Positions 7,960 through 59,395 of a DNA stretch of 64,000 bases are shown piece by piece. Source of the DNA: Minisyncoccota bacterium. GTDB taxonomy: Bacteria > Patescibacteriota > Minisyncoccia > UBA6257 > GWB1-50-10. Where the stretch lies: contig DATLZO010000019.1 in NCBI GenBank assembly GCA_035573955.1, forward strand, positions 161-64,160. The letters run 5' to 3'. A program made the position numbers and the translations under genes. A model generated the notes under the pieces. That model had not been told where the DNA came from and made no database searches. It saw only the letters and a list, made by a program, of their open reading frames with translations. Each line of letters begins with the position of its first letter. Position 1 is the stretch's first letter.

Positions 7960-7991
7960 ATGAAGCATACTTACGTATGCCACCATCGTTT

Positions 7992-9360: not shown

Positions 9361-9400
9361 GCCGAGCACCTGGAGAATGCCCGGCCTCTTCATTTTTCTA
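9361..9400 (+). terminator. rho-independent terminator for the 8936-9354 gene
   Basis: GAGGCCG...CGGCCTC stem followed by TTCATTTTT; overlaps the convergent thrS stop. Confidence 0.4.
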
Positions 9401-15934: not shown

Positions 15935-16141
15935 ATGGGTGGCGTACCAGTAAAACATCATTCCAAATCCAAAGTCGGCCGGCGGCGGTCGCAGCTCGCT
16001 TTGAAAAAGCGGCGCCTTGTGGTTTGCTCGAATTGCAAGGGACCGACGTTGCCACATAGAGCGTGTCCGCAGTGTGGTGCTTACGCAAAGTCAGAAAGAT
16101 CAAACGTCAATGTTGAGAAAGTCCGACCTCCCAAAAATTGA
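15935..16141 (+). CDS. rpmF: 50S ribosomal protein L32
   Basis: HHSKSKVGRRRSQLALK plus CxxC...CxxC zinc ribbon. Confidence 0.85.
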   Translation: MGGVPVKHHSKSKVGRRRSQLALKKRRLVVCSNCKGPTLPHRACPQCGAYAKSERSNVNVEKVRPPKN

Positions 16142-16167
16142 CTTTAATATTTAGGAGGTCGGACTTT
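16118..16167 (+). promoter_or_regulatory. 14-bp-stem hairpin AAAGTCCGACCTCC...GGAGGTCGGACTTT spanning the rpmF stop; its loop contains ACCTCCCAAAAATTGAC
   Basis: read directly; the loop resembles the conserved ATTGACGT upstream element. Confidence 0.35.
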
Positions 16168-16207
16168 CCATAAATTGAACGTTAGTATTTTAGTATTTTA
16201 ACAACTC

Positions 16208-19550: not shown

Positions 19551-19577
19551 GGTGATATACTTAAAAGTAATACCACC
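19551..19577. repeat. copy of dispersed palindromic element (GGTGATATACTTAAAAGTAATACCACC)
   Basis: matches the GGTGGTATA-n5-6-TATACCACC copies at 35420, 37514 and 44106. Confidence 0.4.
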
Positions 19578-19645: not shown

Positions 19646-21397
19646 ATGAACTCGGAAACAAAAACCTGCCAGAATTGTAAGCAATCTTTTAAGATTGAGG
19701 CGGACGACTTTAATTTTTACGAAAAAATTAATGTTCCGCCGCCGACGTGGTGTCCCAACTGCCGGGCGCAGCGGAGATTGATTTTCCGCAACGAGCGAAC
19801 CCTATATAGAAGAAAATGCGACCTCTGCGGTAAAGATATCATTTCAATTTTCCATAAAGATAGCCCGCAGACCGTTTACTGCCAGCCATGTTGGTGGTCG
19901 GACAAGTGGGATCCGACTTCATACAGTCGCGATTACGATTTCTCTCGTCCGTTTTTCGAACAGTTCCTCGAGTTATACCGGAAAGTACCGTTGCCGGCAC
20001 TCTCCACTTTTTATACGACTTTAGTGAACAGTGAATATGTCAATCAAGCCGGATATATGAAGAATTGCTACCTCCTCTTTGATTCGGACTACGACGAGAA
20101 CTGCGCTTATGGAACGGAGGTTGAGCACAGTCATGATTGTTTTGATTGCCTGATGATAAACGGCTGTAGCCTTGCTTATGAGTGTGTTAACTGCCAGAAG
20201 TGTTACGAGATTTTTTACTCTATGGATTGCGATAACTCACATCACGTCTGGTTTTCCCGAGATCTTATCGGCTGCTCTTACTGTTTCGGTTGCACGAATT
20301 TGAGAAACAAGCAGTATCATATTTTCAACAAGCCTTACTCGAAGGAAGAGTATGAGAGAGAAATAAAGCGGCTAAGTCCCAATTCCAAAGAGAAAGTTCT
20401 GGAGATGAAAGAAAAAGTCGAAGAGTTCTTTCTTACTTTCCCACGTAAGTACATTCGCGGTCGGCAAAACACCAACGTTTCGGGCGATTATATCCATCAT
20501 TCCAAGGAAGTGTTCAATTCTTACATCGTTACCGAAGCACAGAATTGCAAGTATTGCATGTGGTTAATCGTGAAACCCATAAAAGACTGCTGGGATTACG
20601 CGGGGTTTGGCAACAACGCCCAGAATATGTATGAAAACATGAATTGCGGCCAAGATGTAAGCGATATTAGTTTTTCGTCGTTTGTATTTATATCTTCTTC
20701 TCGCATTAAATACTCGATATTTTGTTATTCTTCTCAAGACCTATTCGGCTGTGTCGGTCTGCGTCGAAAATCTTACTACATCTTCAATAAAGAATACTCT
20801 AAAGAAGACTATGAAAAGCTTGTTCCTCAAATAATTGAGCATATGAATAAAATGCCCTATACCGACGGTAAGGGGAGGGTTTACAAGTACGGAGAATTCT
20901 TCCCGCCTGATCTTTCACCTTTCGCTTATAACGAAACGACGGCGATAGAGTATTTTCCGCTGACCGAAACGGAGGTTCTAGAGAATGGTTACAGTTGGAA
21001 GGAAACTGAGAAACGCGACTACAAAGTAACAACTGTTGGACCAGAACTCGAGTGGGTCATAGGCTGCGAGCACGGCGGCAAGTGCAATCATAATTGTACG
21101 ACTGCCTTTAAATTGATACCCCAAGAACTGCAATTTTATAAGAGGATGAATATTCCTTTGCCTCAACTTTGTCATAACTGCCGGCATCACGAACGATTGG
21201 GGCAGAGAAATATTTTCAAACTCTCCCATCGGCGGTGTCAGTGCGCAGGTGCAAGTTCGGAGAATAAAGTCTACCAGAACAACCATTCCCACTTCCACGG
21301 TGCCGAACATTGCCCCAACGAATTTGAAACTTCTTATTCCCCTGACCGGAAAGAAATTGTCTACTGCGAACAGTGCTACAACACCGAAGTCGCATAG
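19646..21397 (+). CDS. large cysteine-rich protein, paralog 1 (583 aa), with duplicated terminal zinc-ribbon-like modules
   Basis: N- and C-terminal modules share C..C...F.I...FY.K.N.P.P..C.NCR..RRL.FRN...LY.R.C..C; centre is full of CxxC pairs with an internal repeat LRNKQYHIFNK / LRRKSYYIFNK. Confidence 0.7.
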   Translation: MNSETKTCQNCKQSFKIEADDFNFYEKINVPPPTWCPNCRAQRRLIFRNERTLYRRKCDLCGKDIISIFHKDSPQTVYCQPCWWSDKWDPTSYSRDYDFSRPFFEQFLELYRKVPLPALSTFYTTLVNSEYVNQAGYMKNCYLLFDSDYDENCAYGTEVEHSHDCFDCLMINGCSLAYECVNCQKCYEIFYSMDCDNSHHVWFSRDLIGCSYCFGCTNLRNKQYHIFNKPYSKEEYEREIKRLSPNSKEKVLEMKEKVEEFFLTFPRKYIRGRQNTNVSGDYIHHSKEVFNSYIVTEAQNCKYCMWLIVKPIKDCWDYAGFGNNAQNMYENMNCGQDVSDISFSSFVFISSSRIKYSIFCYSSQDLFGCVGLRRKSYYIFNKEYSKEDYEKLVPQIIEHMNKMPYTDGKGRVYKYGEFFPPDLSPFAYNETTAIEYFPLTETEVLENGYSWKETEKRDYKVTTVGPELEWVIGCEHGGKCNHNCTTAFKLIPQELQFYKRMNIPLPQLCHNCRHHERLGQRNIFKLSHRRCQCAGASSENKVYQNNHSHFHGAEHCPNEFETSYSPDRKEIVYCEQCYNTEVA

Positions 21398-28912: not shown

Positions 28913-29570
28913 TTAAAGTCCGACGGATTTCATCCTCGAGCGCCACTTGATAATTTCAAATTGGGCAAGAAGATGAACTTTTTTACAAGTTCAGGGTCTT
29001 CTAGTTAAAGTAATCGAGCAGAGATAAATTACTCAACAGAGTAAGTTACTCAAATTAAGGGTGGATGGTGGATGCCTAGACACCGAACGGCGAAGAAGGA
29101 CGTGGCGTAGCTGCGATAAGTCTCGGGGAGGTGCGTAGCAACCTTTGATCCGGGAATGTCCGAATGGGGAAACCTGGTAGAGCAAACCTCTATCACTTCA
29201 ACGCAAGTTGAAGAGCGTACCCAGGGAACTGAAACATCTAAGTACCTGGAGGAGCAAAGAACAATAGTTTATTCCGCAAGTAGCGGCGAGCGAAAACGGA
29301 AGAGCCTAAACTGAGCTTTCGACGCAAGTCGGACGCTCAGGGTTGAAAGAGTGAGAACGTCTTTCGAGCTTGAAAGCTTTGAGCTTGAAAGGAGAAGTTA
29401 CAAATCCATTGGTTAGTTGAATCCGCTGGAAAGCGGAGCCATAGTGCGTGATAGCCGCGTAAACGAAAACCAGTGGACTTCTCAGTTTTTATTTCTTAAG
29501 TACCGCGAGGCCAACTAACCTTGTGGGAATCCGGGAGTACTGTCTCCTAAGGCTAAATACGTTCGGCGAT

Positions 29571-29607
<37 letters not shown>

Positions 29608-29672
29608 CAGCCCGGTTAGGGCGGTGAAATAGTACCTGAAACCATCCACTTACAAGGAACAGGAGCTTTATC

Positions 29673-29836
29673 GCTATCGCTCAAAGTTCCTAAATTCTAA
29701 GCACGAAATCCAAAATTCTAAATAAATTCTAAACTCCAATGTTCAAGATTCAAAACGTTTTGAACATTTGGATTTTAGTGATTGGAGTTTGTTTAGGATT
29801 TAGAAATTAGAAATTAGGATTTGGAAACTTCGAGCG
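29673..29836 (+). other. AT-rich hairpin insertion (IVS-like) at the 23S helix-25 site
   Basis: ~160 nt imperfect palindrome of TTCTAAA/TTTAGAA-type repeats between GGAGC and the conserved GAGTGACTGTGTGCC. Confidence 0.6.
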
Positions 29837-30526
29837 GTAGCGAGGAGTGACTGTGTGCCTATTGAAGAATGAGCCAACGAGTTTACGTACGCTGCAAAGT
29901 CTAAGCCCCCTCGGGGGTGGAGGCGCAGCGAAAGCGAGTCTTAATAGGGCGAATTTAATCAGTAACACAAGCCTTTTAAGAGGATTGTGTTACCGGTTAA
30001 TAAGCAACGTGCGTAAGACCCGAAACCAGACGAGCTTGCCCTGGCCAGGATGAACTCCCGCGAAAGCGGGAGGGAGGTCCGCACCGGTGAGTCGTGCAAC
30101 GCTCTCGGATGAGCTGGGGTAAGGAGTGAAAAGCTAATCGAGTTTGGTAATAGCTGGTTCTCTCCGAAATAGTTTTCGGACTAGCCTCATATGTTTCCTT
30201 TTGGAGGTAGAGCACTGGAAGATGCGAACAGGGCGCAAGCTCGTCGCATCTATCAAACTCCGAATGCCAAAGGGTAAAAGTATGGGAGTCAGACTGTGGG
30301 GGCTAAGCTCCATGGTCGCGAGGGGAAGAGCCCAGATCGCCGTCTAAGGTCCCAAAGTTCGTACTAAGTGTCAAAGGTAGTTCGTGTCCACAAACAGATA
30401 GGAGGTTGGCTTAGAGGTAGCCATCCTTTAAAGAGTGTGTAACAACTCACTATTCGAGGACGCGGGCGCCAAAAATTTACCGGGGCTCAAGTACGACACC
30501 GAAGACGCGGGCCGTTGCGGAGCAAC

Positions 30527-30645
30527 GGAAATCCTAAATCCAAAATCCTAATTTCTAAACAAATCCCAAATCTCAAAATCCAAAACTTTTTTGAGTTTGG
30601 AATATTTGAATTTGTTTAGGATTTAGAGATTAGAATTTAGAGTTT
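30527..30645 (+). other. AT-rich hairpin insertion (IVS-like) at the 23S helix-45 site, homologous to the helix-25 insertion
   Basis: flanked by GGAAA/TTTCC; shares TTTGTTTAGGATTTAGA(A/G)ATTAGAA with the 29673-29836 insertion. Confidence 0.6.
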
Positions 30646-32048
30646 CCGTCGCTTCGCGACGGCGGTAGGAGAGCATTCCTTGTGCTGCGAAGTCCGATCC
30701 GTGAGGGCGGATGGAGCGCAAGGAAGAGAGAATGTTGGCATGAGTAATCAGCAAAGCGCGTGAAAAACGCGCTCCCCGCAAATCCAAGGTTTCCTCCGCA
30801 ACGCAAATCGACGGAGGGTTAGGCGGCCCTAAGGCGATGGCGAAAGCCGCAGCCGAAGGAGTGCCGGTTAATATTCCGGCCCACCATGCATTTTCGATGG
30901 GGTGACGGAACGCAGTAAGTTCGGTGCCTTAATGGTTTGGCATCCTTGACCGAGAGTGAATTCCAGGGAAATCCGGAATTCTGTCTTCAATGACGAACTT
31001 CAGGGTAGAGGCGAGGCGAGGTTTTTACCTTGCCAAGCGGACCGAGCGCGTTTCCTAGAAAAACCTCTAAGGTTAAAGTGCATAGTTCCGTACCGTAAAC
31101 CGCCACTGGTGGATGAGGCGAGTAGCCTAAGGGGAACGAGTGATTTCTCGCTAAGGAACTCGGCAAAAAAGCTAGGCGTAACTTCGGGATAAGCCTTGCC
31201 TGCCGCAAGGCAGGCCGCAGCTAAAGTTTCTCTGGCGACTGTTTACCAAAAACACAGCTCCCTGCGAACTCGCAAGAGGATGTATAGGGGGTGACACCTG
31301 ACCGATGCGAGAAGGTTAACGGCGGGGACGTTGCGCAGCAATGTGCAAGGTTCACTGCCCGAAGCCCTCGTCAATGTCAGCGGTAACTATAACCGTTCTA
31401 AGGTAGCGCAATTCCTTTCCGGGTAAGTTCCGGAGCGCACGAAAGGTGTAACGACTGGAGAACTGTCTCAGCGAGAAGCTCGATGAAAATGCGATACCCG
31501 TGAAGACGCGGGTTACCGGCAGCAAGACGAAAAGACCCCGGAAGCTTTACTGCAGTTTGGTATTGTTATTAACGTTTGGATGCGTAGCGTAGTGGTGAGC
31601 CTTCGAAGCCGGGATTTCGGTTCCGGTGGAGGCGACAATGAAACAGCCATCTTTCAAGTGTTAATATCTAACCTCTAGGGCCAAAAACCTAGAGGGACAG
31701 TGCCTGACGGGCAGTTTAAATGGGGCATTTTCCTCCTAAAAAGTAACGGAGGAGTCTATTAAGGTCAGCTTGGCGCGGATGGAAATCGCGCCGGACGTGC
31801 AAAGGCATAAGCTGGCTTGACTGCAAGGCTGACAAGCCGCGCAGGCGCGAAAGCGGAGCTTAGCGACCCGACCATTCTTTATAGAAAGATGGGAGACAAC
31901 GGCTAAAAGTTACTCCGGGGATAACAGGCTAGTCTGGTCCGAGAGTCCCTATCGACGACCAGGTTCGGCACCTCGATGTCGGCTCATCACATCCCGGGGC
32001 TGGAGAAGGTCCCAAGGGTTTGGCTGTTCGCCAATTAAAGTGATACGT

Positions 32049-32089
<41 letters not shown>

Positions 32090-32127
32090 TGTTGTCGGCG
32101 TTAATGCTTGAGGGAAGTCGTCCCTAG

Positions 32128-32892
32128 TAAACGACAAATTGCTACTTCACGAAGTAATTCGTGATGACAAAGCGGCTAATAACGGTGGAATCTTAATATT
32201 TGATTATCACCATCGGTCTTGGTGATAATTTACTTGAGGACCAAGAGATGTTAAGATAATACCGTGGGAAGTCGGTCTAACATTCACTATGCGTACATTG
32301 CGGGTTTCCTCGATGGTGACGGAAGCCTCATGTTGCAGGTGAAGAAACGCAAAGAAGGGAAATTGAAACGGCGTTTCATGTTCACGATTTGTTTTTATTA
32401 AGACAGTCGTCATGAACGTCCGCTTTTCTGGATTCGTAGAGTGCTCGGCATTGGTTATATTTCCCGTCGGAATGACGGTATAACCGAGCTGCGCATCAAC
32501 GGTTACAAACAAGCTGCGAGAATATTAAGGGAACTACTGCCGTTTCTAAAATTCAAGAAGCGGCAGGCGGAGGCAATATACAGCGCGGCAAAGCTTTTAG
32601 CGCAAAAGGCGCGAAAAAGATTAACGCGGCAGGAATTGCAGCGGCTTGTGAACTGGATCCTTGTAGTTCAAAAAGAAAACTACGTTACCAGAAAAAAGAA
32701 AACGAAAGCTGATTTCTTGAAGATGTTAGATTTGACCCCGTAACGACTTGTTCCGGATGGCAAGTCCGGACGGAGTTGGAAAATGCGAAGCTATCATTTT
32801 TCAGCTAATACGCCGCCTCCAAGCCCCGGTTTTGAGAAAACTGGAGCTGGATGAAGATATAGTCTACGCACGTAGTGATACGTGGTTACGTG
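32128..32892 (+). mobile_element. group I intron in 23S domain VI, splitting CCUAGU^ACGAGAGGACC at the sarcin-ricin loop
   Basis: exon sequences rejoin to the conserved SRL; intron ends in G; GATATAGTC P7-like core; contains the LAGLIDADG ORF. Confidence 0.7.
32264..32743 (+). pseudogene. intron-encoded single-motif LAGLIDADG homing endonuclease (I-CreI-like) with an in-frame TAA at 32399-32401
   Basis: YIAGFLDGDGS motif; GIGYI...LPFLKFKKRQAEA aligns to I-CreI; the stop falls where I-CreI has Gln (CAA to TAA). Confidence 0.65.
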
Positions 32893-32971
32893 ACGAGAGG
32901 ACCGGGATGAACGAACCTCTGGTCTACGAGCTCTACCACCAGGTGGAATGCTCGGTAGCTATGTTCGGACG

Positions 32972-33005
<34 letters not shown>

Positions 33006-33049
33006 CTCCCAAGATTAGGCGGAGCGTCCTCTGTACAAATTCCGCGATT

Positions 33050-33290
33050 ATTGGCCAGAAAGATTTTTTATATCTGGCTAGGCGCGAGGAGTGATGTGTA
33101 GTCGAAGACTACATGAGCGACGAGCAACAACGCCAGAAGAAAAAAGATTCTGGCCCGTAGGGAAGCTCAAAATTAAGCGATCTCTGCGTTGCTCCTCCTC
33201 AATGTGGTTTTCGACCACACTTTCGTCGTCGCATCTTGAGCTCATCATAATTTTGAGCTTCCAATACATCGTGGCATTTGTGCAGAGGGC
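33050..33290 (+). other. ~230-nt expansion insertion near the 23S 3' end (helix ~98 region)
   Basis: between CATCTAAGCGCGAAGCCTCTCCCAAGATTAGG and GTGGAAGACTACCACGTTGATAGGCC, where E. coli has ~50 nt; several local hairpins. Confidence 0.45.
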
Positions 33291-33459
33291 GCCGGATTCG
33301 TGGAAGACTACCACGTTGATAGGCCATAGGTGTAAGCGCGGCAACGCGTTTAGCCGAGTGGTACTAATAAATCCGAATTCTCGATATCTTTAGCTTGAGG
33401 ACCCCGGACTTGTCAAAAAGCTCATCTTTAGTCCACTGATCGAGCACCAAGGTTTTTGT

Positions 33460-33574
33460 TTGCTGGTGTTTCACTCGCACGTGCTCCACCTCTTCCCATT
33501 CCGAACAGAGAAGTGAAAGCGTGCGAGCCTGATGATACTGCGCTTCGCGCGTGGGACAGTAGGGTATGCCAGCA
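33460..33574 (+). rRNA. 5S rRNA
   Basis: CCATTCCGAACAGAGAAGTGAAAGCGTGC...GGGACAGTAGGGTATGCCAGCA; ~80 nt after the 23S. Confidence 0.85.
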
Positions 33575-33611
33575 TACAAAAGCCCTGGTGCTTTTTGTTT
33601 GGAGCGGTTCC

Positions 33612-34912: not shown

Positions 34913-36022
34913 ATGCCTATTCATTATATCAGTCGGGGAAATTCTGAGAAATTCCGTGGCAGATCGGTCCTCTTACGGGTCGATTTAAACGTTGAGCCGG
35001 CGCCCGGGAGAATTACTTTCCGGCTCGCGTCGGTAATGCCCACCATACGTTTTTTACTTGCGCATGGTGCGCGTGTTGTGATTTTAAGTCATCGCGGCCG
35101 TCCTCGCGGCTACTCGAGGAAATTATCCATGCGCCCGTTTGTACCTATTCTGCAGAAAGAATTGCGGCAAAATATTGGATTTATAACGACTTTCAATCTT
35201 CCAAATAAAGGAAGAGTTTTCTTAGTGGAAAACCTGCGGTTTTGGCACGGTGAGGAAAAAAACGATGCGAATTTCGCCAAAAAACTGGCGCGTTTGGGAG
35301 ATTTTTATGTTAATGATGCTTTTGCCGTCTCGCACCGAAAAAACGCTTCGGTCGTTGCAATAACAAAATACTTGCCGTCCTACGCCGGCCTTTTGTTTGA
35401 AAGAGAAGTAAAAAATTTAGGTGGTATACTTAAATATACCACTAATCCCTTTGTCATAATTTTGGGCGGCAGCAAAGCCTCGGATAAGATTGGGATGATG
35501 AAGTATTTCTGGAATAAAGCCGACTATTTCCTGCTCGGCGGCGGGCCCGCGAACACTTTTTTTGCCGCAAAAGGCCTGCCGATAGGTGATTCGCTTATTG
35601 ACCGAGGTTCGATTTCACAAGTATTGAGACTAATTCGTAAGGAAATCGAGCCTCGCAAAATTGTTCTTCCCGTCGACGTGAAGATAAAAGACAGAAAGAT
35701 TCTGGATATCGGCGACGGTACTACCCGTAAATATAGTATCCTTATTAGAAAGGCACGGACGATTATCTGGAACGGGCCGATGGGTCAGTTTGAAAAGCGG
35801 GGTTTCGGCGAGGGAACAGCAGCTATCTGGAAGGCGATTCTACGCAATAGTAAAGCCAAAATAATTGTCGGCGGCGGCGAAACCACTGCTTCATCTGACC
35901 TCATTTCTAATTTCTCATCTCTAATTTCTAGAAAGAAAAATCTTTTCCTTTCCACGGGCGGCGGCGCGATGTTGGAATTTTTATCCGGTAAAAAATTACC
36001 TGGAATTGAGGTGTTAAAATAA
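34913..36022 (+). CDS. pgk: phosphoglycerate kinase
   Basis: LLRVDLNVEP, VENLRFWHGEE, VNDAFAVSHRKNAS, IILGGSKASDKIG; carries an in-frame copy of the palindromic element at 35420. Confidence 0.9.
   Translation: MPIHYISRGNSEKFRGRSVLLRVDLNVEPAPGRITFRLASVMPTIRFLLAHGARVVILSHRGRPRGYSRKLSMRPFVPILQKELRQNIGFITTFNLPNKGRVFLVENLRFWHGEEKNDANFAKKLARLGDFYVNDAFAVSHRKNASVVAITKYLPSYAGLLFEREVKNLGGILKYTTNPFVIILGGSKASDKIGMMKYFWNKADYFLLGGGPANTFFAAKGLPIGDSLIDRGSISQVLRLIRKEIEPRKIVLPVDVKIKDRKILDIGDGTTRKYSILIRKARTIIWNGPMGQFEKRGFGEGTAAIWKAILRNSKAKIIVGGGETTASSDLISNFSSLISRKKNLFLSTGGGAMLEFLSGKKLPGIEVLK
35420..35443. repeat. copy of dispersed palindromic element GGTGGTATACTTAAATATACCAC, in-frame inside pgk (encodes GGILKYTT)
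   Basis: read directly; 23/24 identical to the murC copy. Confidence 0.4.
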
Positions 36023-36645: not shown

Positions 36646-37500
36646 ATGAAGTCCATAGTTGTTATATACCACGCGAACTGCCCCGACGGTTTCGGCGCAG
36701 CTTATGCCGCCTGGAAAAAATTCGGCAACAGAGCCGATTATTTCGCCGTAAAACCGCACCAACTTCCACCCAATTCTCTTCGAAACAAAGAAGTTTACAT
36801 TTTGGACGGCTCTTACCCTGCCCAGCTTATTAAAGAACTTAAAAGAACCAGTAAAAGGGTTGTGATAATTGACCACCACATCAGCAATAAAAAGGAGATT
36901 AAATATGCCTCGGATTATTTATTTGATTTAAACCATTCCGGCGCTTACCTCGCTTGGCAATATTTCCATCCTAAGAAAAAAGTTCCCAAACTGCTCCGAT
37001 ATATAGAGGAGGGTGATTTATGGAAGTTTAAATCTCCTCAAATCCACACGTTATTGGCTTACATTTATTCACTTCCTTATGACTTTAAAGTTTGGGACAA
37101 TATTTGCCGCAGAATGGAGAAACTAAGCGAGAAGAAAAAGTATATTGCGCTCGGCAAAGTAATTTCCGATTACGACGCCCGTATTGTAAAAGCGATTGCT
37201 GAAAAAGCGGAGCTTGTGAAATTCGGTAAATATAAGATTCTGGCGGTTAATTTTCCGCTTAGAAAATATACCTCGGAAGTGGCGCATAAACTTTACCGTC
37301 GCCGGCCACCGATCGGCATTGTCTGGCATGTCTCGCCGGACGGCATCAAAGTTTCGTTGCGTTCCAACGGAAAAGTGAACGTGGCAAAGATCGCCGAAAA
37401 GTATGGGGGCGGTGGTCATAGGGCGGCGTCAAGTTTTATTCTGCCGCGAAATGCGAAATTACCCTGGAAAGTCATAAACGTCAAAAAGATTAAAAAATAA
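36646..37500 (+). CDS. nrnA: DHH-DHHA1 phosphoesterase (NrnA-like nanoRNase / pAp phosphatase)
   Basis: YHANCPDGFGAAYA, IIDHH (DHH motif), GGGH (DHHA1 motif). Confidence 0.78.
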   Translation: MKSIVVIYHANCPDGFGAAYAAWKKFGNRADYFAVKPHQLPPNSLRNKEVYILDGSYPAQLIKELKRTSKRVVIIDHHISNKKEIKYASDYLFDLNHSGAYLAWQYFHPKKKVPKLLRYIEEGDLWKFKSPQIHTLLAYIYSLPYDFKVWDNICRRMEKLSEKKKYIALGKVISDYDARIVKAIAEKAELVKFGKYKILAVNFPLRKYTSEVAHKLYRRRPPIGIVWHVSPDGIKVSLRSNGKVNVAKIAEKYGGGGHRAASSFILPRNAKLPWKVINVKKIKK

Positions 37501-37501
37501 A

Positions 37502-37981
37502 GTGAAACACACAGGTGGTATGTTCAAATATACCACCCCAATCATTAAAAAAGTGGGAAAATTAACTATTTATACAGACGGAGGAGCGAGAGGTAATCCC
37601 GGACCGGCAGCGATCGGCGTTTTGGTAGAAGACCCTTCGGCAAGCTCAGGACGGGTAAAAAGCTACAGCGAGGCGATAGGGAATACGACAAACAATGTTG
37701 CCGAATACCGGGCCGTCATTTTTGCGCTCACGAAGGCCAAAGCGTTGCTCGGCGCCGACAAAGCCAAGGAAACAGAATTAGAAATCCGCTCCGACAGTGA
37801 ACTCGTGGTAAGTCAATTGAAAGGCGAATACAAAATAAAAGACAAAGATCTCCAGCCACTCTTCGTTGAGGTTTGGAACAAGATGCAGAATTTCAAAAAA
37901 GTGGAATTCGTTCTCATCCCGCGCGAGAAGAATAAAGAAGCCGATGCGCTCGTGAATCGCGCTCTGGATACGTTATTTTAA
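37502..37981 (+). CDS. rnhA: ribonuclease HI (probable true GTG start at 37553)
   Basis: TIYTDGGARGNPGPAAIGV and downstream RNase H motifs; the first 17 codons of the ORF-track model coincide with a palindromic element copy. Confidence 0.85.
   Translation: MKHTGGMFKYTTPIIKKVGKLTIYTDGGARGNPGPAAIGVLVEDPSASSGRVKSYSEAIGNTTNNVAEYRAVIFALTKAKALLGADKAKETELEIRSDSELVVSQLKGEYKIKDKDLQPLFVEVWNKMQNFKKVEFVLIPREKNKEADALVNRALDTLF
37514..37537. repeat. copy of dispersed palindromic element GGTGGTATGTTCAAATATACCACC
   Basis: read directly; probably intergenic if rnhA starts at 37553. Confidence 0.4.
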
Positions 37982-38789: not shown

Positions 38790-38833
38790 TTTCCGGGCTT
38801 GCTTTTTACCAAAAAATGCGCTTATATTGTTTT

Positions 38834-39193
38834 CGGTAAGTCAAGCGATAGCTCCGATTCCGCAAGGTTTTGGAGAGGAAAGTCCGGACACCCTCCCGGC
38901 CGTGCGCCGGGATAAAAATGTAGCGGATAACGTCCGTCGTCCGCAAGGATAGAGGTGCGAGCAGTGACGTCCCGAGCCGAAAGGCGAGGGAGGACCTAAT
39001 CTCAAGCTAATCGGTCCAATCCCGCGATAGAGATAGAAAAGCGGGAGTGAAACGGCTAAATCCTTACAGGGTGCAAGGCTGTGCCCCGGGAGACCGGGGA
39101 ATGCCGCTCGAGTCCGGGAGTAATCCCGGTCCTAGATGAATTATCGCTAAGGTGTATAATCACCCGAAACAGAATCCGGCTTACGACTTACCG
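38834..39193 (+). ncRNA. rnpB: RNase P RNA (bacterial type)
   Basis: GAGGAAAGTCCGGAC (P4 5' strand) and ACAGAATCCGGCTTAC (P4 3' strand); P1 pairing CGGTAAGTC/GACTTACCG; terminator follows. Confidence 0.85.
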
Positions 39194-39195
39194 CA

Positions 39196-39227
39196 GAAAC
39201 CCGCCGCAAGGCGGGTTTCTGTTATTT
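39196..39227 (+). terminator. rho-independent terminator of rnpB
   Basis: GAAACCCGCC-GCAA-GGCGGGTTTC then TGTTATTT. Confidence 0.6.
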
Positions 39228-42669: not shown

Positions 42670-42681
42670 ATGCAAATAAAT

Positions 42682-42717
42682 ATCCCAATTCATAAGCTAT
42701 AGCTTATGAATTGGGAT
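42682..42717. terminator. perfect 36-bp palindrome ATCCCAATTCATAAGCTA/TAGCTTATGAATTGGGAT between convergent genes; likely bidirectional terminator
   Basis: the sequence equals its reverse complement; flanked by A/T runs. Confidence 0.5.
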
Positions 42718-42719
42718 AA

Positions 42720-43481
42720 TTAGAGATAACCGATTTTTTTAAGCCATTCTATATTTTCCCATTCCCAAAGTTTCTTCGCGCCGAGGAATGCATCGAAGTC
42801 TTCTTGCCAGTAGGGGAATTCTTTGAGTTCTATCCTGCCCTCGAGCGGACCCCATTCGTGTTGGCAGACTTGCATGAAAGCGTTGCCCCACTGTGTTTTT
42901 ATCTTATCCCGACCGCCCTTAGAGCGGAGTATGGCGCTGCAATGGACGCAGAAACGGCTCTGGTCGATGCGCAAAATCCACCTCGTCTCCAGATTTTTCA
43001 CTTGTTCCTTCATTGCCGCGAGATAGGCCGAGGTCTGGAGATTATAGTCGCGGTAAATTTCCTGCGATGTTTTAATGTCCAAAATGCCGAGTTTGCCGTC
43101 GATGAGTGCGATTGCGTCCAATGTCCCGGCATAGCGGTGCTCGTAGTTTACGAGACGGTGCTCAACGTAGTTCGGGTCTACCTGGATGTTGCGGTCGACT
43201 AAAAATTCCAAGAATGCCTTAATAGAAGGGCGGATGCGCTCGGGTATTTCCGGTTTCTCACCAAGGAGGATTTTTTCTGCCGCTTCGTGGATCTGCGTAC
43301 CTTCGGTAGCAGAGTTCATTTTAATGCGTTCGCCGGCCGCAAAGTTTTCGACATTTGCGTAGAAGCGGTAGAGGGCCGGTTTGGACTTGATTTCCACGAT
43401 TTTCGTCACCCGCGGGTACCAAAATCCGTCTACTTCGTAGCCGCAGAGTGATTTGAAATGGTTTTCGTCGGAGTAGTACAT
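42720..43481 (-). CDS. PD-(D/E)XK nuclease, Cas4/RecB-like family (one N-terminal plus three C-terminal Cys)
   Basis: GTLDAIALIDGKLGILDIKTS (D...D.K), Cys13 plus CVHC...C arrangement typical of Cas4/AddB Fe-S nucleases; no CRISPR array in the window. Confidence 0.65.
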   Translation of the reverse strand: MYYSDENHFKSLCGYEVDGFWYPRVTKIVEIKSKPALYRFYANVENFAAGERIKMNSATEGTQIHEAAEKILLGEKPEIPERIRPSIKAFLEFLVDRNIQVDPNYVEHRLVNYEHRYAGTLDAIALIDGKLGILDIKTSQEIYRDYNLQTSAYLAAMKEQVKNLETRWILRIDQSRFCVHCSAILRSKGGRDKIKTQWGNAFMQVCQHEWGPLEGRIELKEFPYWQEDFDAFLGAKKLWEWENIEWLKKIGYL

Positions 43482-43490
43482 TACGATGGC

Positions 43491-44876
43491 TTATTTTATC
43501 AAGGAAGCCGTGTAGTTAACAATGTTTCCGGCACCCATCATTACAATAACAGGGGATAGGGTGTAGGATGTAGGATTTAGGGTTTTTTTAATAAATTTAC
43601 AAAGATTATTTGGGTTAGGTAGATAATAAATATTTTCTTTACCGCGATTCTTTATTTTTTTCGCTAAATCGGCGGAAGTATAGCCACGGTGGGTTTTGTC
43701 ACGGCCGGCGACTTGGTAAATAGGCAGCAAAATTAAATAGTCGGCTAAATCAAAAGCAGAGGTAAATTCCTTGAAAAGATTTTTCAGGCGGTGAGCTTGA
43801 TGCGGCTGGAAAACGCAAACTATATCCGACTCCGGGAATTTTTCGTGAAAGGCTTGAAGGGTCGCCTTGATCTCTGTCGGATGATGTGCATAGTCGTCAT
43901 ACACGGGGATTTTGAATTTTGAATTTTGAATTTTGAATTGCCCACGGTATTCCATCCGGCGCCAGGCGCCGCGATAGCCGCTTAATGCTTTTAATATTGT
44001 TTTTTCTTTGATACCGAGCGCGCGAGCGAGCGTATAAACAGCCAGGGCGTTCGAAACATTGTGCTGCCCCGTAATTTTTAAAACTTTTTTTATCCTCCGG
44101 AGAGGGGTGGTATATTTAAGTATGCCACCTCTATACCAAATCAGTCGGATGCTCTGTTTCTTGCAAATTTTTTGGATTCGGGATTTTAGACCAAAAAGAT
44201 TTTTATCGTCGCGGTTCGCTACTAAAATCCCGCCCGCTTTTATGTTTCCGATAAATTTCAAGAAAGATTTTTTTACATTTGCGAGATTCTTATAAACGTC
44301 CAAATGTTCCTTATCAATATTCGTGATTACAGCATAGGTGGGGGAGTAGTTATGGAAGGACATTTTAAATTCGTCAGCCTCGATTAAAAGCCAGTCACTT
44401 TTACCGTTCCGGAAGTTTGAGTCGCCGAATTCCTTGAGTAGTGTGCCGACGATGACCGTTGGGTCAAAACCGGCTCCGATCATAACAAGCGATGTGAGAG
44501 CGGTCGTGGTACTTTTGCCGTGGGCGCCAGCGATGGCGACGGTCTTGTAGTTTCGGGTGAGCGCTCCCAAAATCTGCGGATAGGTGAGTGTCGGGATGTT
44601 CCGCCGCCTTGCCTCCCTTAATTCTGGATTCGAGGCCGGAATAGCCTGGTTGTATACAACTAGAGCCGTTTTAGTCCCAATATTGGTTTTTTTGTGCCCA
44701 ATTTTGAACTTTAAGCCCTTTTTTTGCAGATTTCGTACTAAATCACTATCCTGCATATCTGACCCCGAAATAGCCCATTTTTGGGCCAAAAACCACTGTG
44801 CCAGTGCACTAATACCTATTCCACCCACTCCAATGAAGTGGACCAAGGGCTTATTTAAAGGGGAGAGGTCTTTCAT
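43491..44876 (-). CDS. murC: UDP-N-acetylmuramate--L-alanine ligase
   Basis: VHFIGVGGIGISALAQ, VAIAGAHGKSTTTAL, DDYAHHPTEI. Confidence 0.9.
   Translation of the reverse strand: MKDLSPLNKPLVHFIGVGGIGISALAQWFLAQKWAISGSDMQDSDLVRNLQKKGLKFKIGHKKTNIGTKTALVVYNQAIPASNPELREARRRNIPTLTYPQILGALTRNYKTVAIAGAHGKSTTTALTSLVMIGAGFDPTVIVGTLLKEFGDSNFRNGKSDWLLIEADEFKMSFHNYSPTYAVITNIDKEHLDVYKNLANVKKSFLKFIGNIKAGGILVANRDDKNLFGLKSRIQKICKKQSIRLIWYRGGILKYTTPLRRIKKVLKITGQHNVSNALAVYTLARALGIKEKTILKALSGYRGAWRRMEYRGQFKIQNSKFKIPVYDDYAHHPTEIKATLQAFHEKFPESDIVCVFQPHQAHRLKNLFKEFTSAFDLADYLILLPIYQVAGRDKTHRGYTSADLAKKIKNRGKENIYYLPNPNNLCKFIKKTLNPTSYTLSPVIVMMGAGNIVNYTASLIK
43909..43940. repeat. heptanucleotide tandem repeat (ATTTTGA)x4.5 inside murC
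   Basis: read directly; encodes QFKIQNSKFKI. Confidence 0.7.
44106..44129. repeat. copy of dispersed palindromic element (minus-strand GGTGGCATACTTAAATATACCACC), in-frame inside murC (GGILKYTT)
   Basis: read directly. Confidence 0.4.
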
Positions 44877-44931: not shown

Positions 44932-45429
44932 TTATAAAAGCCATTTCCACGGTTTCCTCCTACTTTTATATTTTTCCATTTCCGACTTTATTTTCTGTAA
45001 TTTCTTTAAGTCAGTATCATTCCAGTTCACCTTAGAGAATTTTTTCTCTCCTGGAATTCTTGTTTGTCTGTTTCTTTGTAGGATGTTTAGAGCCTCTTTC
45101 CATAATACATAGTCGTATTTCTTTTTAGCTCTTAAAACGTGGTTATCAAAAAATGGTACTACTTTCTCTACGAGATCGTTCAAGTTATTTATCTGGAGCC
45201 TCGCTTGACCGTTTCTATTGAAAATGATGCCGCAGCTTAAGGTTTGTTTGATATTTTCTAGTATTTCTTTGTCATCATCACGCAACACTATAGCAAATCC
45301 TATTTTCCAATAAAAATAGACCGGCTTATTTTTCCTGTCGTGTCTAACATCGCGTCTGAAATTTATATAAAAACAACCCTCGCCGTCTACAAAGCCGGCA
45401 ATGTAATCACCAGGTAATTTTTCTCCCAC
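44932..45429 (-). CDS. free-standing LAGLIDADG homing endonuclease (single-motif, 165 aa)
   Basis: YIAGFVDGEGCFYI motif; strongly AT-rich compared with the flanking genes. Confidence 0.78.
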   Translation of the reverse strand: MGEKLPGDYIAGFVDGEGCFYINFRRDVRHDRKNKPVYFYWKIGFAIVLRDDDKEILENIKQTLSCGIIFNRNGQARLQINNLNDLVEKVVPFFDNHVLRAKKKYDYVLWKEALNILQRNRQTRIPGEKKFSKVNWNDTDLKKLQKIKSEMEKYKSRRKPWKWLL

Positions 45430-48554: not shown

Positions 48555-48600
48555 TTCCCAAATGTTGACGGCAATATTAGGAGGTCAAACCTCCAAAGTT
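48555..48600. promoter_or_regulatory. motif TTGACGGCAAT-n3-GGAGGTCAAACCTCC upstream of gltX, related to the element upstream of Cys-rich paralog 2
   Basis: read directly; partly overlaps the last codons of murG. Confidence 0.3.
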
Positions 48601-49665
48601 TAGGAGTTTTTTAGCGATTTTCTCTGCCGCTTCATGTTTTGAGAAACTTTTAGCGGCTTTTGCCATTGCTTTTGCGATTTTCCCGTTTTTGAGGATTTTT
48701 TCAATTTCGGTTTTCATAGTTTGCCAGTTTAGGTCGCTTTCTTCCACCACCACGGCCGCTCCGGTGGCAGCGTATTCATAGGCATTGGCTTTTTGATGAT
48801 TGCTTGCCGCACCTTCGAGCGGAATTAATATGGAAGGTTTCCCAAAAGCGGCGATTTCAAAAATGGCGCTTGCGCCGGCGCGGGAAATAACGAGGTTGGT
48901 TTTTGACAGCGCTCGCTTTAATTCTGCGGCGTCTAAAAATTTCACTGGGTGGTAGTTTTTGGAAGCACTATAATTAATTATAGCGCCGACATTATTTTCA
49001 CCCGTTTGATGAAGAATGCTCCCCAATTTTAATAATTCTTTAAGGTGCGCGGAGATAAAAGAGTTAATGCAGGCTGCTCCTTGGGAGCCGCCAAGCACCA
49101 AAATAGACACTCTAACATTCTGCAAAATACTGGAATGTTGTGGTTTTGTTGAATCTTTCAGAAGATCGGCGCGAATGGGGTTGCCTATGAGTTCGGTTTT
49201 GTTTTTCGGGAAGTATTTTTCGGCGTTTTTCCAAGCGATGAAGATTTTCTTTGCAAAAATCGCCGAGAGACGGTTCGTGAGTCCCGGTACGGCGTCGGAA
49301 TCATGAATCACAACCGGCACGAAAAAACACCGGGCGGCCAAGACTACCGGGAGCGCCCCCGGTCCGCCTTTGGAAAAGACTAAATCTGGCTGGATGTAGA
49401 AAATATGAGCCAGTGATTGAAAAATACTCCAGAGAAACTTAAAAATGTCGGTAAAGTTCCGCCAGTCAAAATAGCGGCGGAGCTTGCTTGAGACAATCGA
49501 CAGTGTTTCGATGTTTCTTTTTGTAAACTCGACGTTCAAAGGGTGATTCGGGCCAATGTAGTGAAGTTGAACTTCACTAGATTGTTTTTGGATTTCTTCG
49601 GCTACCGCCACAAGCGGAAAAATATGTCCGCCCGTTCCCCCGCCTGTTAGTACAATCTTTTTCAT
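48577..49665 (-). CDS. murG: undecaprenyldiphospho-muramoylpentapeptide beta-N-acetylglucosaminyltransferase
   Basis: KIVLTGGGTGGHIFPLVAVAEE GT28 N-terminus. Confidence 0.9.
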   Translation of the reverse strand: MKKIVLTGGGTGGHIFPLVAVAEEIQKQSSEVQLHYIGPNHPLNVEFTKRNIETLSIVSSKLRRYFDWRNFTDIFKFLWSIFQSLAHIFYIQPDLVFSKGGPGALPVVLAARCFFVPVVIHDSDAVPGLTNRLSAIFAKKIFIAWKNAEKYFPKNKTELIGNPIRADLLKDSTKPQHSSILQNVRVSILVLGGSQGAACINSFISAHLKELLKLGSILHQTGENNVGAIINYSASKNYHPVKFLDAAELKRALSKTNLVISRAGASAIFEIAAFGKPSILIPLEGAASNHQKANAYEYAATGAAVVVEESDLNWQTMKTEIEKILKNGKIAKAMAKAAKSFSKHEAAEKIAKKLLNFGGLTS

Positions 49666-51437: not shown

Positions 51438-51496
51438 TTTTGCGAGGCTCGACCTCCATGCGAATTGACGTCAATGTTTGGGAGGTTAAACCTCAA
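51438..51496 (-). promoter_or_regulatory. conserved upstream element of paralog 2 containing the perfect palindrome ATTGACGTCAAT and GGAGGTCGAGCCTC
   Basis: aligns with the region upstream of paralog 1 (ATTGACGT...GGATGTCGGAAGTCC...ATTGAAAG). Confidence 0.4.
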
Positions 51497-57803: not shown

Positions 57804-58814
57804 TTAGCCGTGCCGTACAACCATCACGTCACCATCTTCAACCACATAGTCTTTACCTTCTACTTTTAGCCAACCTTTCTGTTTTGCTCCGTTCCAACCA
57901 CCCGCTTCCACTAGGCGCTCGTATTTGACCACTTCGGCCCGGATGAATTTCTTCTCGAAATCGGTGTGAATGACTCCCGCCGCCTGGGGCGCGCGAGTTC
58001 CTCTTTCTATAGTCCAGGCCCGCGTTTCGTCCTCGCCGGTCGTGAAAAAGCTTATCAAGTTTAGAACATCATAGGCCTTTTTTATGAGTTCCGGTACTTC
58101 GGAAACCGTTGCGAGGTCAACCGCGAGATAATCGGCGCCTATCTCCCTTATTGCTGTTACGAGCTCGGCTGGCACGTCTTTCATTGTGCCGTTTAGGAGA
58201 TAAAGCTGTGGTTTGGCGGTCAAAAGGTTCATTTCCCGGAAAAGTTTCCAATACTGTTCGTTGTCCTTCGGGACAAGTCCCAGGAATTTTCCTTTCTCGA
58301 GCATCGCTTTTATCTCGCCGAGCGAATCTTTCAGGTCGACATATTCCTTCTTACCGCTTCGTGCGTCAGATTCGGCTTTCGCGAGCCGTTTTTCCACAGT
58401 TTCGATGTCTTTCAGAGCAAGTTCGGTTTTTATAATCTCCACGTCACGCAAAGGGTTCACGCCGCCTTCCACGTGGATTATGTCGTTGCCTTTGAAACAG
58501 CGCACTACTTGGAGCACGGCGTTTACTTCACGAATATTCGTGAGGAACTGGTTGCCCAAACCTTCGCCTTTGTTTGCTCCTTTCACAAGGCCGGCGATGT
58601 CGTAGAATTCTACTACGGCTGGGACGATTTTCCTGGATTTTGATATTTTTGCGAGAACTTGGAGACGCTCGTCTGGTACCGGCACTACGCCGATATTCGG
58701 ATCAATAGTAGCGAAAGGGTAATTGGCAATATTTACCTCCGCCTTGGTGATCAGTTTGAAAAGCGTCGATTTACCGACGTTTGGAAGACCCACTATGCCT
58801 ATCGAAAGTTTCAT
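57804..58814 (-). CDS. ychF: ribosome-binding ATPase YchF
   Basis: MKLSIGIVGLPNVGKSTLF G1 motif, TGS C-terminal domain; start trimmed to MKLSIG at 58814. Confidence 0.9.
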   Translation of the reverse strand: MKLSIGIVGLPNVGKSTLFKLITKAEVNIANYPFATIDPNIGVVPVPDERLQVLAKISKSRKIVPAVVEFYDIAGLVKGANKGEGLGNQFLTNIREVNAVLQVVRCFKGNDIIHVEGGVNPLRDVEIIKTELALKDIETVEKRLAKAESDARSGKKEYVDLKDSLGEIKAMLEKGKFLGLVPKDNEQYWKLFREMNLLTAKPQLYLLNGTMKDVPAELVTAIREIGADYLAVDLATVSEVPELIKKAYDVLNLISFFTTGEDETRAWTIERGTRAPQAAGVIHTDFEKKFIRAEVVKYERLVEAGGWNGAKQKGWLKVEGKDYVVEDGDVMVVRHG

Positions 58815-59329
58815 TTCACGTAAAAGCGATAATGCTTGTTTGACCATACGGGTCCAGCGTAATCAACGCCGACACGTTTGGACCTTCCGATTTTGGATTT
58901 GGGGATTTTCACGCCCTTATCCTCTATCCAAAGGCCGGTTTTGCGGTTGGCCATAAGGCCGTTGAATTTCAAATCGATTCCGAAGGATTTTGTGACCCTG
59001 CCAGGCCCGCTAACGCCTTTCACTCCCCTTATAAGGACCGCGGCCGGGAAACCTTTCTTACCGGTTACGACGTTTAGCATCCAGTGCATACCGTAGGTAA
59101 AATAAACATACCAGTAGCCGGCCGGGCCAAACATAACAATATTCCTCGGGGTTATGCCCTTGTGGGCATGCGAGGCTGCATCTTTCGGTCCGTCATAAGC
59201 CTCCGTCTCGGTTATCATCGCGCGGATAGTTTTGCCGCGGATTCTGCGGCAGAGATATTTACCCAAGAGTAATTTAGCCACCGCAACAGTTTGGTGTTCA
59301 AAAAACTTCGCGTTTAAAACTTTGGACAT
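58811..59329 (-). CDS. mpg: DNA-3-methyladenine glycosylase (Mpg/AAG family)
   Basis: ITETEAYDGPKDAASHAHKGITPRN, MFGPAGYWYVYFTYGMHWMLNVV. Confidence 0.88.
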   Translation of the reverse strand: MSKVLNAKFFEHQTVAVAKLLLGKYLCRRIRGKTIRAMITETEAYDGPKDAASHAHKGITPRNIVMFGPAGYWYVYFTYGMHWMLNVVTGKKGFPAAVLIRGVKGVSGPGRVTKSFGIDLKFNGLMANRKTGLWIEDKGVKIPKSKIGRSKRVGVDYAGPVWSNKHYRFYVK

Positions 59330-59371
59330 GATTAAAATTTAATTGACGGACAATAACATAAAAAGTTTCAG

Positions 59372-59393
59372 GCGCTATAATTGATTATAGCGC
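59372..59393. promoter_or_regulatory. 10-bp-arm palindrome GCGCTATAAT-TG-ATTATAGCGC between the 59396 gene and mpg
   Basis: read directly; contains TATAAT on both strands. Confidence 0.35.
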
Positions 59394-59395
59394 TA

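Follow-up and report, generated by a model that had tools for sequence, protein, structure and literature searches.

A dispersed palindrome in Patescibacteria genomes, probably the binding site of a lineage-specific branch of TrpR-like repressors

Introduction

The window in this study, i.e., the whole stretch of DNA that was analysed, is a 64-kb part of a Patescibacteria/Paceibacterota metagenome-assembled genome (MAG), and it contains a dispersed 24-bp palindrome that is found between genes as well as in-frame inside the essential genes pgk and murC. The Pgk protein of the window is 100% identical to HXF44298.1 ('MAG TPA: Candidatus Paceibacterota bacterium'), its nearest relative being a Jorgensenbacteria Pgk with 68% identity. 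An earlier annotation of the window (the original prediction) had listed four copies of the palindrome and had regarded it as a sequence selected at the DNA level, e.g., a protein-binding site, an uptake or recombination signal, or a dispersed repeat.

Almost nothing is known about regulation in Patescibacteria (also called the Candidate Phyla Radiation, CPR), which are mostly uncultured and contain very few transcription factors. A literature search returned no relevant occurrence of the motif and no link between the TrpR family and Patescibacteria. Here, the palindrome is described in the window and across bacterial genomes, together with a small gene encoding a putative DNA-binding protein that is bracketed by pairs of palindromes in related genomes.

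Palindromes and host genes in the window

Three strong copies of GGTGGTATA-N6-TATACCACC (here referred to as type-1 sites) are present in the window, and a fourth, decayed copy precedes the gene of a Cys-rich protein. The sites and the genes next to them are as follows.

35420..35443: type-1 site, arms GGTGGTATA and TATACCACT, centre CTTAAA; in-frame in pgk (GGILKYTT); 33 bits
44106..44129, minus strand: type-1 site, GGTGGCATA, centre CTTAAA, TATACCACC; in-frame in murC (GGILKYTT); 32 bits
37514..37537: type-1 site, GGTGGTATG, centre TTCAAA, TATACCACC; 15 nt before the GTG at 37553; 26 bits
19551..19577: decayed type-1 copy, GGTGATATA CTTAAAAGT AATACCACC; 68 nt upstream of the gene of the Cys-rich protein
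34913..36022, plus strand: pgk, host of a site (PF00162)
43491..44876, minus strand: murC, host of a site (Mur ligase domains found in the orthologue of locus L003)
37553..37981, plus strand: rnhA, just downstream of a site; start uncertain (GTG 37553, ATG 37520, or GTG 37502)
19646..21397, plus strand: gene of a Cys-rich 583-aa protein without a Pfam family; recurrent neighbour of sites in other genomes

All four copies of the original prediction were recovered at these coordinates, and its statement that chance is a very unlikely source holds as well: allowing at most 2 mismatches to GGTGGYAT-N8-ATAYCACC, the window matches are those at 35420, 37514, and 44106, compared with 0.02 matches expected from shuffles. 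On a weight matrix for type-1 sites, trained on 84 copies from other genomes, the best of 20 shuffles reached -0.6 bits, and the degenerate copy at 19551, which has a 9-nt centre, scored -6 and is not significant. The pgk and murC copies do both read GGILKYTT in-frame, and they are identical at 22 of the 24 nt, not at 23 as had been given. Outside the palindromes, the lone arm GGTGGTATA is not enriched in the window (8 extra matches with at most 1 mismatch, 5.5 expected), which indicates that the unit is the whole palindrome. A further sequence, TGAAGCATA-CTTACG-TATGCCACC, is located between convergent genes at 7961-7984 and has the same right arm as the murC copy; its score lies inside the shuffle range, so that it was rejected as a site and may be a relic.

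The site at 37514 occupies a 52-nt spacer between a DHH/DHHA1 gene and rnhA; in relatives this spacer is missing and the two genes overlap. An imperfect direct repeat (ATTAAAAAATAAAGTGAAA ... ATTAAAAAAGTGGGAAA, within 37440-37570) flanks the palindrome, and this hints at an origin of the spacer by duplication or insertion. The rnhA start that had been proposed earlier, GTG 37553, is plausible, given that (M)GKLTIYTDGG fits the relatives (which start with ME..KK(L/I)IIYTDGG, i.e., 7-9 residues before IYTDGG); the gene caller, however, selected the ATG at 37520 inside the palindrome. As for the Cys-rich protein, its orthologues (44-50% identity) have a good upstream site in five other genomes, including JAZDPW, CAZUMB, CAZMFA, and CAZGRD.

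Distribution across genomes and stability of positions

A scan for GGTGGTATA-N6-TATACCACC in one genome per species (185,579 species, 596 Gb) yielded at least 85 matches in at least 79 loci. Among the matches listed, approximately 74 belong to approximately 20 related Patescibacteria MAGs, with up to 12 matches per genome, and 11 further ones are singletons in unrelated bacteria, for which chance alone predicts about 9. At least 12 copies are present in Jorgensenbacteria GWB1_50_10, at least 10 each in CAYISE and CAZMFA, and at least 7 each in CAZGRD and JAKALR. The density of sites is about 1 per 40-60 kb, and the 12 copies listed for LCQK come from three different contigs (at 28-139 kb, at 20-100 kb, and at 12 kb).

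Sites recur at orthologous positions, namely at pgk in eight genomes, at the gene of the Cys-rich protein in five, at murC/D and at mpg in four each, and at tyrS and glyA in two each. The places of the window copies in pgk, in murC, and before the Cys-rich gene are thus occupied by sites in other genomes too; e.g., the MurC gene of CAZGRD (L024) carries a perfect site at the position seen in the window, and in CAYISE the site is found 67 nt upstream of pgk instead of inside it. Homologues without the element, for which the original prediction had proposed to look in relatives, exist for both hosts. Its statement that the element does not lengthen the proteins applies to Pgk, which in an alignment of orthologues has the same length with and without the site, residues being replaced and none added, and fails for MurC, as the L003 protein without a site is 4 aa shorter than the site-bearing MurC proteins to which it is 68-74% identical.

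Constraint at the DNA level and anatomy of the site

Orthologues of the window Pgk at 60-68% identity contain GGILKYTT or GGLLKYTT at the same place, while other orthologues are devoid of it, and the perfect palindrome GGTGGTATACTTAAGTATACCACC is present at the same codons in the Pgk genes of five to seven other genomes. In six Pgk genes (63-74% protein identity, save one pair that is identical in protein), the codons at invariant residues are identical in 95 of 105 pairs (90%) within the site and in 1067 of 2265 pairs (47%) elsewhere. The peptide is therefore kept with the same codons, which supports the earlier notion of DNA-level selection tolerated in coding sequence and is the reverse of the outcome, a peptide conserved with other codons, that the original prediction had named as speaking against it.

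With its flanks, the full consensus comprises 26 bp, R-GGTGGTATA-(C/A)TWWA(G/T)-TATACCACC-Y, around a dyad-symmetric 24-bp core with a 9-6-9 build. The central six bases are genome-specific and usually palindromic (CTTAAG in 29 copies, CTATAG in 20, ATCAAT/ATTGAT in 8, ATTAAT in 5, CTCAAG in 4, and CATATG in 3), and the weight matrix has an almost invariant T at their position 2 and an almost invariant A at position 5. Where two arm mismatches occur, in four copies, they are symmetric double changes in every case (4/4). A purine at -1 is combined with a pyrimidine at +1 in 80 of 87 copies, whether or not the two can pair (A..C 14, G..T 14). The symmetric changes and the purine/pyrimidine (R/Y) flanks, which are kept regardless of pairing, argue against an RNA stem and for a pair of identical half-sites that would be read in double-stranded DNA.

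Placement relative to genes

Gene junctions contain 55 of the 87 sites, although open reading frames (ORFs) cover about 90% of the DNA of these loci. Several others directly precede a true start or a tRNA gene, and many are found 15-70 nt ahead of a start codon or a tRNA gene. Their neighbours form a mixed set that includes pgk, mur genes, mpg, aminoacyl-tRNA synthetase (aaRS) genes, tsaC, and the gene of the Cys-rich protein. The copies that are truly intragenic are read as GGT-GGT-ATA without exception, and their hosts are Pgk, MurC (in the window and in L024), a ligase resembling MurD, a nucleotidyltransferase-like protein, and three proteins that are secreted. This frame bias was discarded as a signal, since it arises mostly because the other frames contain stop codons: frame 0 is the sole open frame if the centre is ATTAAT, whereas CTTAAG puts a TAA in frame 2 and CTATAG puts a TAG in frame 0.

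A TrpR-like gene bracketed by palindromes

The original prediction had suggested a protein-binding site with a cognate DNA-binding protein, and a candidate for such a protein was found in related genomes. In five of them, a small gene with a product of 93-135 aa sits between two sites at a distance of 400-480 bp from each other. A gene bracketed in this way is present in at least nine genomes and in every genome open to inspection, and homologues adjoining a site were found in genomes and metagenome contigs, at least nine in total; the protein of Jorgensenbacteria GWB1_50_10 is KKU93897.1. The distance from the end of the upstream palindrome to the ATG is 1-16 nt (L028, L063, L070, L073, L084, L087, L090, L095-L097, and L101), i.e., exactly 1 nt before it in the group with the centre CTTAAG (8 loci) and 7-16 nt before it in the other groups, and the second copy follows the stop codon. 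In L090, L101, and L100, an extended -10-like box (TGnTATAAT; e.g., TGATATAAT) is located between the site and the ATG, 6-7 nt before the latter, which suggests that the transcript may be leaderless, with the site over the promoter. The conserved neighbours of the gene include a tsaC-like gene and alaS, among others, and this synteny argues for a resident gene and not for a mobile cassette.

The gene product belongs to the TrpR fold according to several searches. The proteins of L073 and L090 reach 36.8 and 30 bits on the Pfam family Trp_repressor (PF01371; cutoff 27), and that of L028 stays below the cutoff with 20.5 bits. A profile search with the TrpR-like protein matched the PDB entries 3kor, 3g1c, 3frw, and 1trr (TrpR-like structures and TrpR itself). 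Its AlphaFold2 model has a mean confidence (pLDDT) of 76.6, with 84-94 over residues 11-90, and the top 22 Foldseek matches in PDB are all TrpR or TrpR-like (probability 0.92-1.00, TM score 0.5-0.7, with E-values of only 0.02-0.3). The NCBIfam equivalog cutoffs were not reached (YerC/YecD TIGR02531, 16.6 compared with 42.2 bits; TrpR TIGR01321, 24 compared with 67.25 bits), which indicates a separate branch and not an orthologue of HisR or TrpR. The protein matches 61 database clusters, and the few with a named source are all Patescibacteria (Jorgensenbacteria, Paceibacterota); some of the database homologues are labelled 'YerC' or 'Trp operon repressor', and most carry a precomputed PF01371 match. 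Searching for related loci with a 4-sequence alignment gave five metagenome loci.

Two observations concern individual genes. In CAZGHF, the TrpR-like gene (L084 6699-6971) has an in-frame TGA after codon 42, with the remaining frame intact, so that a pseudogene, a sequencing error, or recoding is possible. At L100 13062-14663, a third, distant TrpR-like paralogue with its own 30-34-bp palindromes is located directly upstream of an rve-family (DDE) transposase gene.

Recognition helices and palindromes

Where the recognition helices of TrpR-like paralogues and orthologues differ, so do the perfect 24-bp palindromes that bracket the genes, while the 9-6-9 build remains the same. Seven helix classes correspond to seven palindromes, and members of the same class have the same palindrome across genomes. 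Within type 1, the AKKT/ARKT helix goes with CTTAAG, TRRT with GGTGGTATA-CTATAG, and TRVT with ATTAAT; the SPAT class (L098, L100) goes with GTGCTACA and the centre GTTAAC. The pairs outside type 1 are listed below.

L098: helix SPAT; AGTGCTACA-GTTAAC-TGTAGCACT
L100, gene B: helix SPAT; GGTGCTACA-GTTAAC-TGTAGCACC; two copies on each side of the gene
L100, gene A: helix SQPT; GGTGCTTTA-ATTAAT-TAAAGCACC; on both sides
L102, second gene: helix SSDT; GGTGCTCTG-TTTAAA-CAGAGCACC; one copy 36 nt downstream, another approximately 700 nt upstream
L100, third, distant paralogue: own 30-34-bp palindrome

In a blind prediction, the protein P0139 (TRVT) was expected to be accompanied by GGTGGTATAATTAATTATACCACC, and L101 shows exactly GGTGGTATAATTAATTATACCACC, followed by TGCTATAAT and the ATG. 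The palindrome sequence thus covaries with the putative DNA-reading residues of the bracketed protein.

A type-2 sister palindrome

A sister palindrome, RGYRCTATA-ATTRAT-TATAGYRCY (type 2), has two copies in the window, compared with 0 expected; neither had been listed in the original prediction.

59371..59394: type-2 site, GGCGCTATA, centre ATTGAT, TATAGCGCT; 41 nt upstream of mpg
48964..48987, minus strand: type-2 site, GGCGCTATA, centre ATTAAT, TATAGTGCT; in-frame in murG (GAIINYSA)
48577..49665, minus strand: murG, host of a type-2 site (Glyco_transf_28 N- and C-terminal domains)
58811..59329, minus strand: mpg, methylpurine DNA glycosylase, just downstream of a type-2 site (PF02245, 172 bits)

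At the junction between a 122-aa gene and mpg, the genomes LCQK, CAZUMB, and CAZMFA have a type-1 site 25-30 nt before mpg. The murG site shares its arms and its peptide with the Pgk site of a different lineage (L091, P0021). The type of palindrome can thus switch at a position that is retained, in agreement with paralogous regulators; some genomes do have two or three TrpR-like paralogues.

Discussion

The dispersal of the palindrome, its conservation at the DNA level, its symmetry, the bracketing of the TrpR-like gene by sites, and the covariation between paralogues and palindromes make it probable, as far as can be judged from sequence, that small dimeric helix-turn-helix (HTH) repressors, which form a Patescibacteria-specific branch of the TrpR/YerC(HisR) family, bind the element as their operator. 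Each HTH of the dimer would read one half-site. At the regulator gene, the upstream site abuts or overlaps the promoter and the start codon, and the protein would thus regulate its own expression. Each genome of 0.5-1 Mb has at least 5-12 further sites, most of which occupy short intergenic stretches at 15-70 nt from the next start codon. The few intragenic sites, in which only one frame of the palindrome is stop-free or tolerable (GGI-x-x-YTT, or GAIINYSA for the sister type), would serve as points of repression or as roadblocks. The convergent sites, the T- or A-runs, and the stable RNA folds described below suggest that binding may also block or end transcription, or that some copies may double as terminators.

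Several observations weigh against a repressor-operator interpretation. Neither tblastn nor a profile search that covered every ORF of 40 aa or more detected a TrpR-like gene in the 64-kb window; the factor of this MAG is assumed to be located elsewhere in its genome. For one paralogue, the L102 gene at 10001, all upstream palindromes are degenerate, and on the downstream side there are two perfect ones that differ from each other. The target genes have no obvious shared function. Moreover, a pure promoter operator should avoid convergent gene ends, yet the types of site-bearing junctions match the background (tandem 34, convergent 12, and divergent 9, compared with 425/91/84 for all junctions; p=0.26). 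Finally, about 41% of the copies adjoin a T- or A-run and some cap longer hairpins, which leaves room for an RNA or terminator role for part of the copies.

Known members of the family show similarities as well as differences. The operators of HisR and TrpR are 20-bp palindromes, cacTTTA-N6-TAAAgtg for HisR and TGTAcTnGTnnACnAgTACA for TrpR (PMC9413887). In Firmicutes, HisR (YerC/YecD) uses lineage-specific 20-bp TTTA-N6-TAAA palindromes (PMC9413887), and the same core spacing is found here in TATA-N6-TATA, TTTA-N6-TAAA, and TACA-N6-TGTA. HisR is, however, usually encoded by a single-copy gene and controls a coherent his regulon via promoter sites, whereas the sites described here have heterogeneous neighbours and several are intragenic. 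E. coli TrpR, acting on the trp, aroH, and trpR operators, is likewise a small dimeric HTH protein of PF01371 with a palindromic operator of about 20 bp that has an AT-rich, TTAA-like centre and overlaps the promoter, and its gene is likewise preceded by its own operator for autoregulation. In contrast to E. coli, the half-site here has another sequence, the palindromes are 24-26 bp long and often perfect, the gene is bracketed on both sides, up to three paralogues per genome have their own palindromes, and sites are also found within genes and at convergent junctions. The Patescibacteria hosts are not known to possess tryptophan biosynthesis. The two-sided bracketing, the several specificity classes per genome, and the long-lived in-frame sites in essential genes are unusual for a system of the TrpR/HisR type.

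These features might be accommodated, in a variant that is conceivable though unlikely, by radiating TrpR-like paralogues, each locked to its own bracketing palindrome, that form a genome-wide punctuation or roadblock system instead of acting on classical promoter operators. Binding at gene boundaries and inside pgk, murC, murD, murG, and aaRS genes would then stop or gate RNA polymerase whichever way it travels, with small molecules, perhaps amino acids, as the signals. Such a system would explain the convergent sites, the two-sided bracketing, and the strongly conserved intragenic copies.

The palindrome could also act as a hairpin in RNA or single-stranded DNA, i.e., as a terminator, mRNA stabiliser, or processing site that would simply provide the TrpR-like gene with its 5' and 3' structure, which is considered rather improbable. 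The copies do fold stably (-8.6 to -13.5 kcal/mol; z -2.3 to -4.6), some sit on extended stems followed by T-runs, and the frequent T- or A-runs, the sites between convergent genes, which are as frequent as elsewhere, and the imperfect copies in murG and L091 pgk, which deviate only by G-U-compatible changes on the sense strand, would suit an RNA function. A hairpin, however, gives no reason for a loop that is palindromic in each lineage, for R/Y flanks that are conserved without pairing (A..C being as common as G..T), for the conservation across genomes of the arm sequence itself and not merely of its pairing, or for a palindrome that tracks the recognition helix of the bracketed protein. In addition, the terminators of the window are unrelated GC-rich hairpins, and its palindromes have no proper T-tails on the sense strand and do not qualify as intrinsic terminators, in contrast to a minority elsewhere with extended stems and T-runs; no Rfam family (gathering thresholds) and, with ARAGORN, no tRNA-like or other known RNA was found at the sites. 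Spreading by insertion as a selfish miniature repeat, similar to repetitive extragenic palindromic (REP) sequences or miniature inverted-repeat transposable elements (MITEs), perhaps aided by the bracketed HTH protein and tolerated where it landed, is less probable still. In its favour are the rnhA copy, lying in a spacer that relatives lack and surrounded by an imperfect direct repeat, the additional 4 aa of site-bearing MurC, the lack of a preference for a junction type, and the rve transposase gene next to one distant paralogue. The genes of REP-associated tyrosine transposases (RAYTs) are, moreover, flanked by REPs, which are short, dispersed, and mainly extragenic palindromes, and so resemble the gene bracketed by two repeats. 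The flanked gene here nevertheless encodes an HTH repressor homologue, consisting of the HTH fold only and without a catalytic domain, and not a Y1 (IS200/IS605-like) transposase, and its synteny is conserved. Copies number in the tens and not in the hundreds (2-12 perfect copies per genome, at the low density given above), there is no GTAG head but only the R/Y flank, and some copies are intragenic. Orthologous positions are kept between distant genomes, with frozen synonymous sites, while the proteins diverge by 30-40%; and terminal repeats or target duplications are in general not seen. Rickettsia palindromic elements, too, are palindromic repeats that are read through in-frame in housekeeping genes, but they are insertions of 100-150 bp that lengthen the proteins, whereas here 24 bp replace codons of Pgk without a change in length and most copies are intergenic.

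A target of some other DNA enzyme or process, such as a homodimeric LAGLIDADG endonuclease whose gene neighbours murC, a site-specific recombinase, a segregation site of the parS type, or an uptake signal, has a very small probability. Homodimeric LAGLIDADG targets and the core sites of recombinases resemble the symmetric 10+4+10 build, and a genuine LAGLIDADG_1 ORF (44932-45429) does adjoin murC, with further such ORFs in L003 and L101. The L003 gene, however, adjoins a murC without a site, so that the ORF is syntenic with murC regardless of the palindrome, and no covariation was seen. Many inverted recombination sites would scramble the genome, and a parS-like centromere disagrees with the LCQK copies, which are dispersed on three contigs and not clustered. 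DNA uptake sequences have an asymmetric core at about 1 per kb that is abundant singly; the density of the palindrome is far too low for this, and its half-site alone is not enriched. A phage origin was discarded as well, as the five matches in a scan of viral contigs had random centres and terminator-like flanks, consistent with chance. The options of an uptake signal, a recombination signal, or a REP/MITE-like element that the original prediction had entertained are thus unsupported. A chance resemblance, or a GGILKYTT peptide conserved for protein function, in favour of which there is only the fit of the peptide to a variable loop, has a negligible probability, given the three window copies where 0.02 are expected, the mostly non-coding copies elsewhere, and the conservation of codons and not just of residues.

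If the element is bound by the TrpR-like proteins, the pair of regulator and site is testable and has a readable specificity code, and the candidate regulon spans glycolysis, cell-wall synthesis, DNA repair, and tRNA-related genes. A candidate protein-binding site would have been kept nearly base-perfect in essential coding sequence over long evolution, constraining eight codons of Pgk, MurC, and MurG. For annotation, GGI(L/I)(K/N)YTT or GAIINYSA peptides and misplaced starts, as at rnhA, are to be expected near sites, and the palindromes could double as lineage markers.

Other elements in the window and related loci

A second family of dispersed palindromes, with arms like GGAGGTYSRACCTCC (resembling Shine-Dalgarno and anti-Shine-Dalgarno sequences), is present in the window at 35612-35665 (in pgk), 16107-16178, and 51444-51494, and also at L002 3893-3945, L026 1766-1816, and L102 4854-4887. 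Its pgk member is an in-frame insertion (RGSISQVLRLIRKEIEPR) that is missing in most orthologues, with a 14-bp stem showing compensatory changes between the window and L002. At 42677-42722, convergent genes flank a near-perfect 46-bp palindrome, which has a CTATAG centre and arms of 23 nt that are 96% complementary; its sequence is unrelated to the main element. An imperfect palindrome, GGTGATTTA-GTGGCRTG-TGTACCACC, with an 8-nt centre, is conserved about 130-210 nt upstream of pgk (L003 1271-1296, L004 9-34, and L006 766-791) and may be another member of the GGTG...CACC series.

The LAGLIDADG_1 endonuclease-like ORF next to murC is free-standing, located on the minus strand, and encodes 165 aa; its syntenic counterpart in L003 is found at 9364-9870. 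The LAGLIDADG_1 ORF of L101 (10669-11121) lies about 400 nt from the TrpR-like gene. No link between these ORFs and the palindrome was found. Within 29048-33575 and 38833-39198, the window further contains genes of 23S rRNA (3068 nt, compared with a model of 2925 nt) and 5S rRNA, which are 1.3 kb apart, with no 16S rRNA gene in the window, and an RNase P RNA that overlaps two mechanically listed ORFs.

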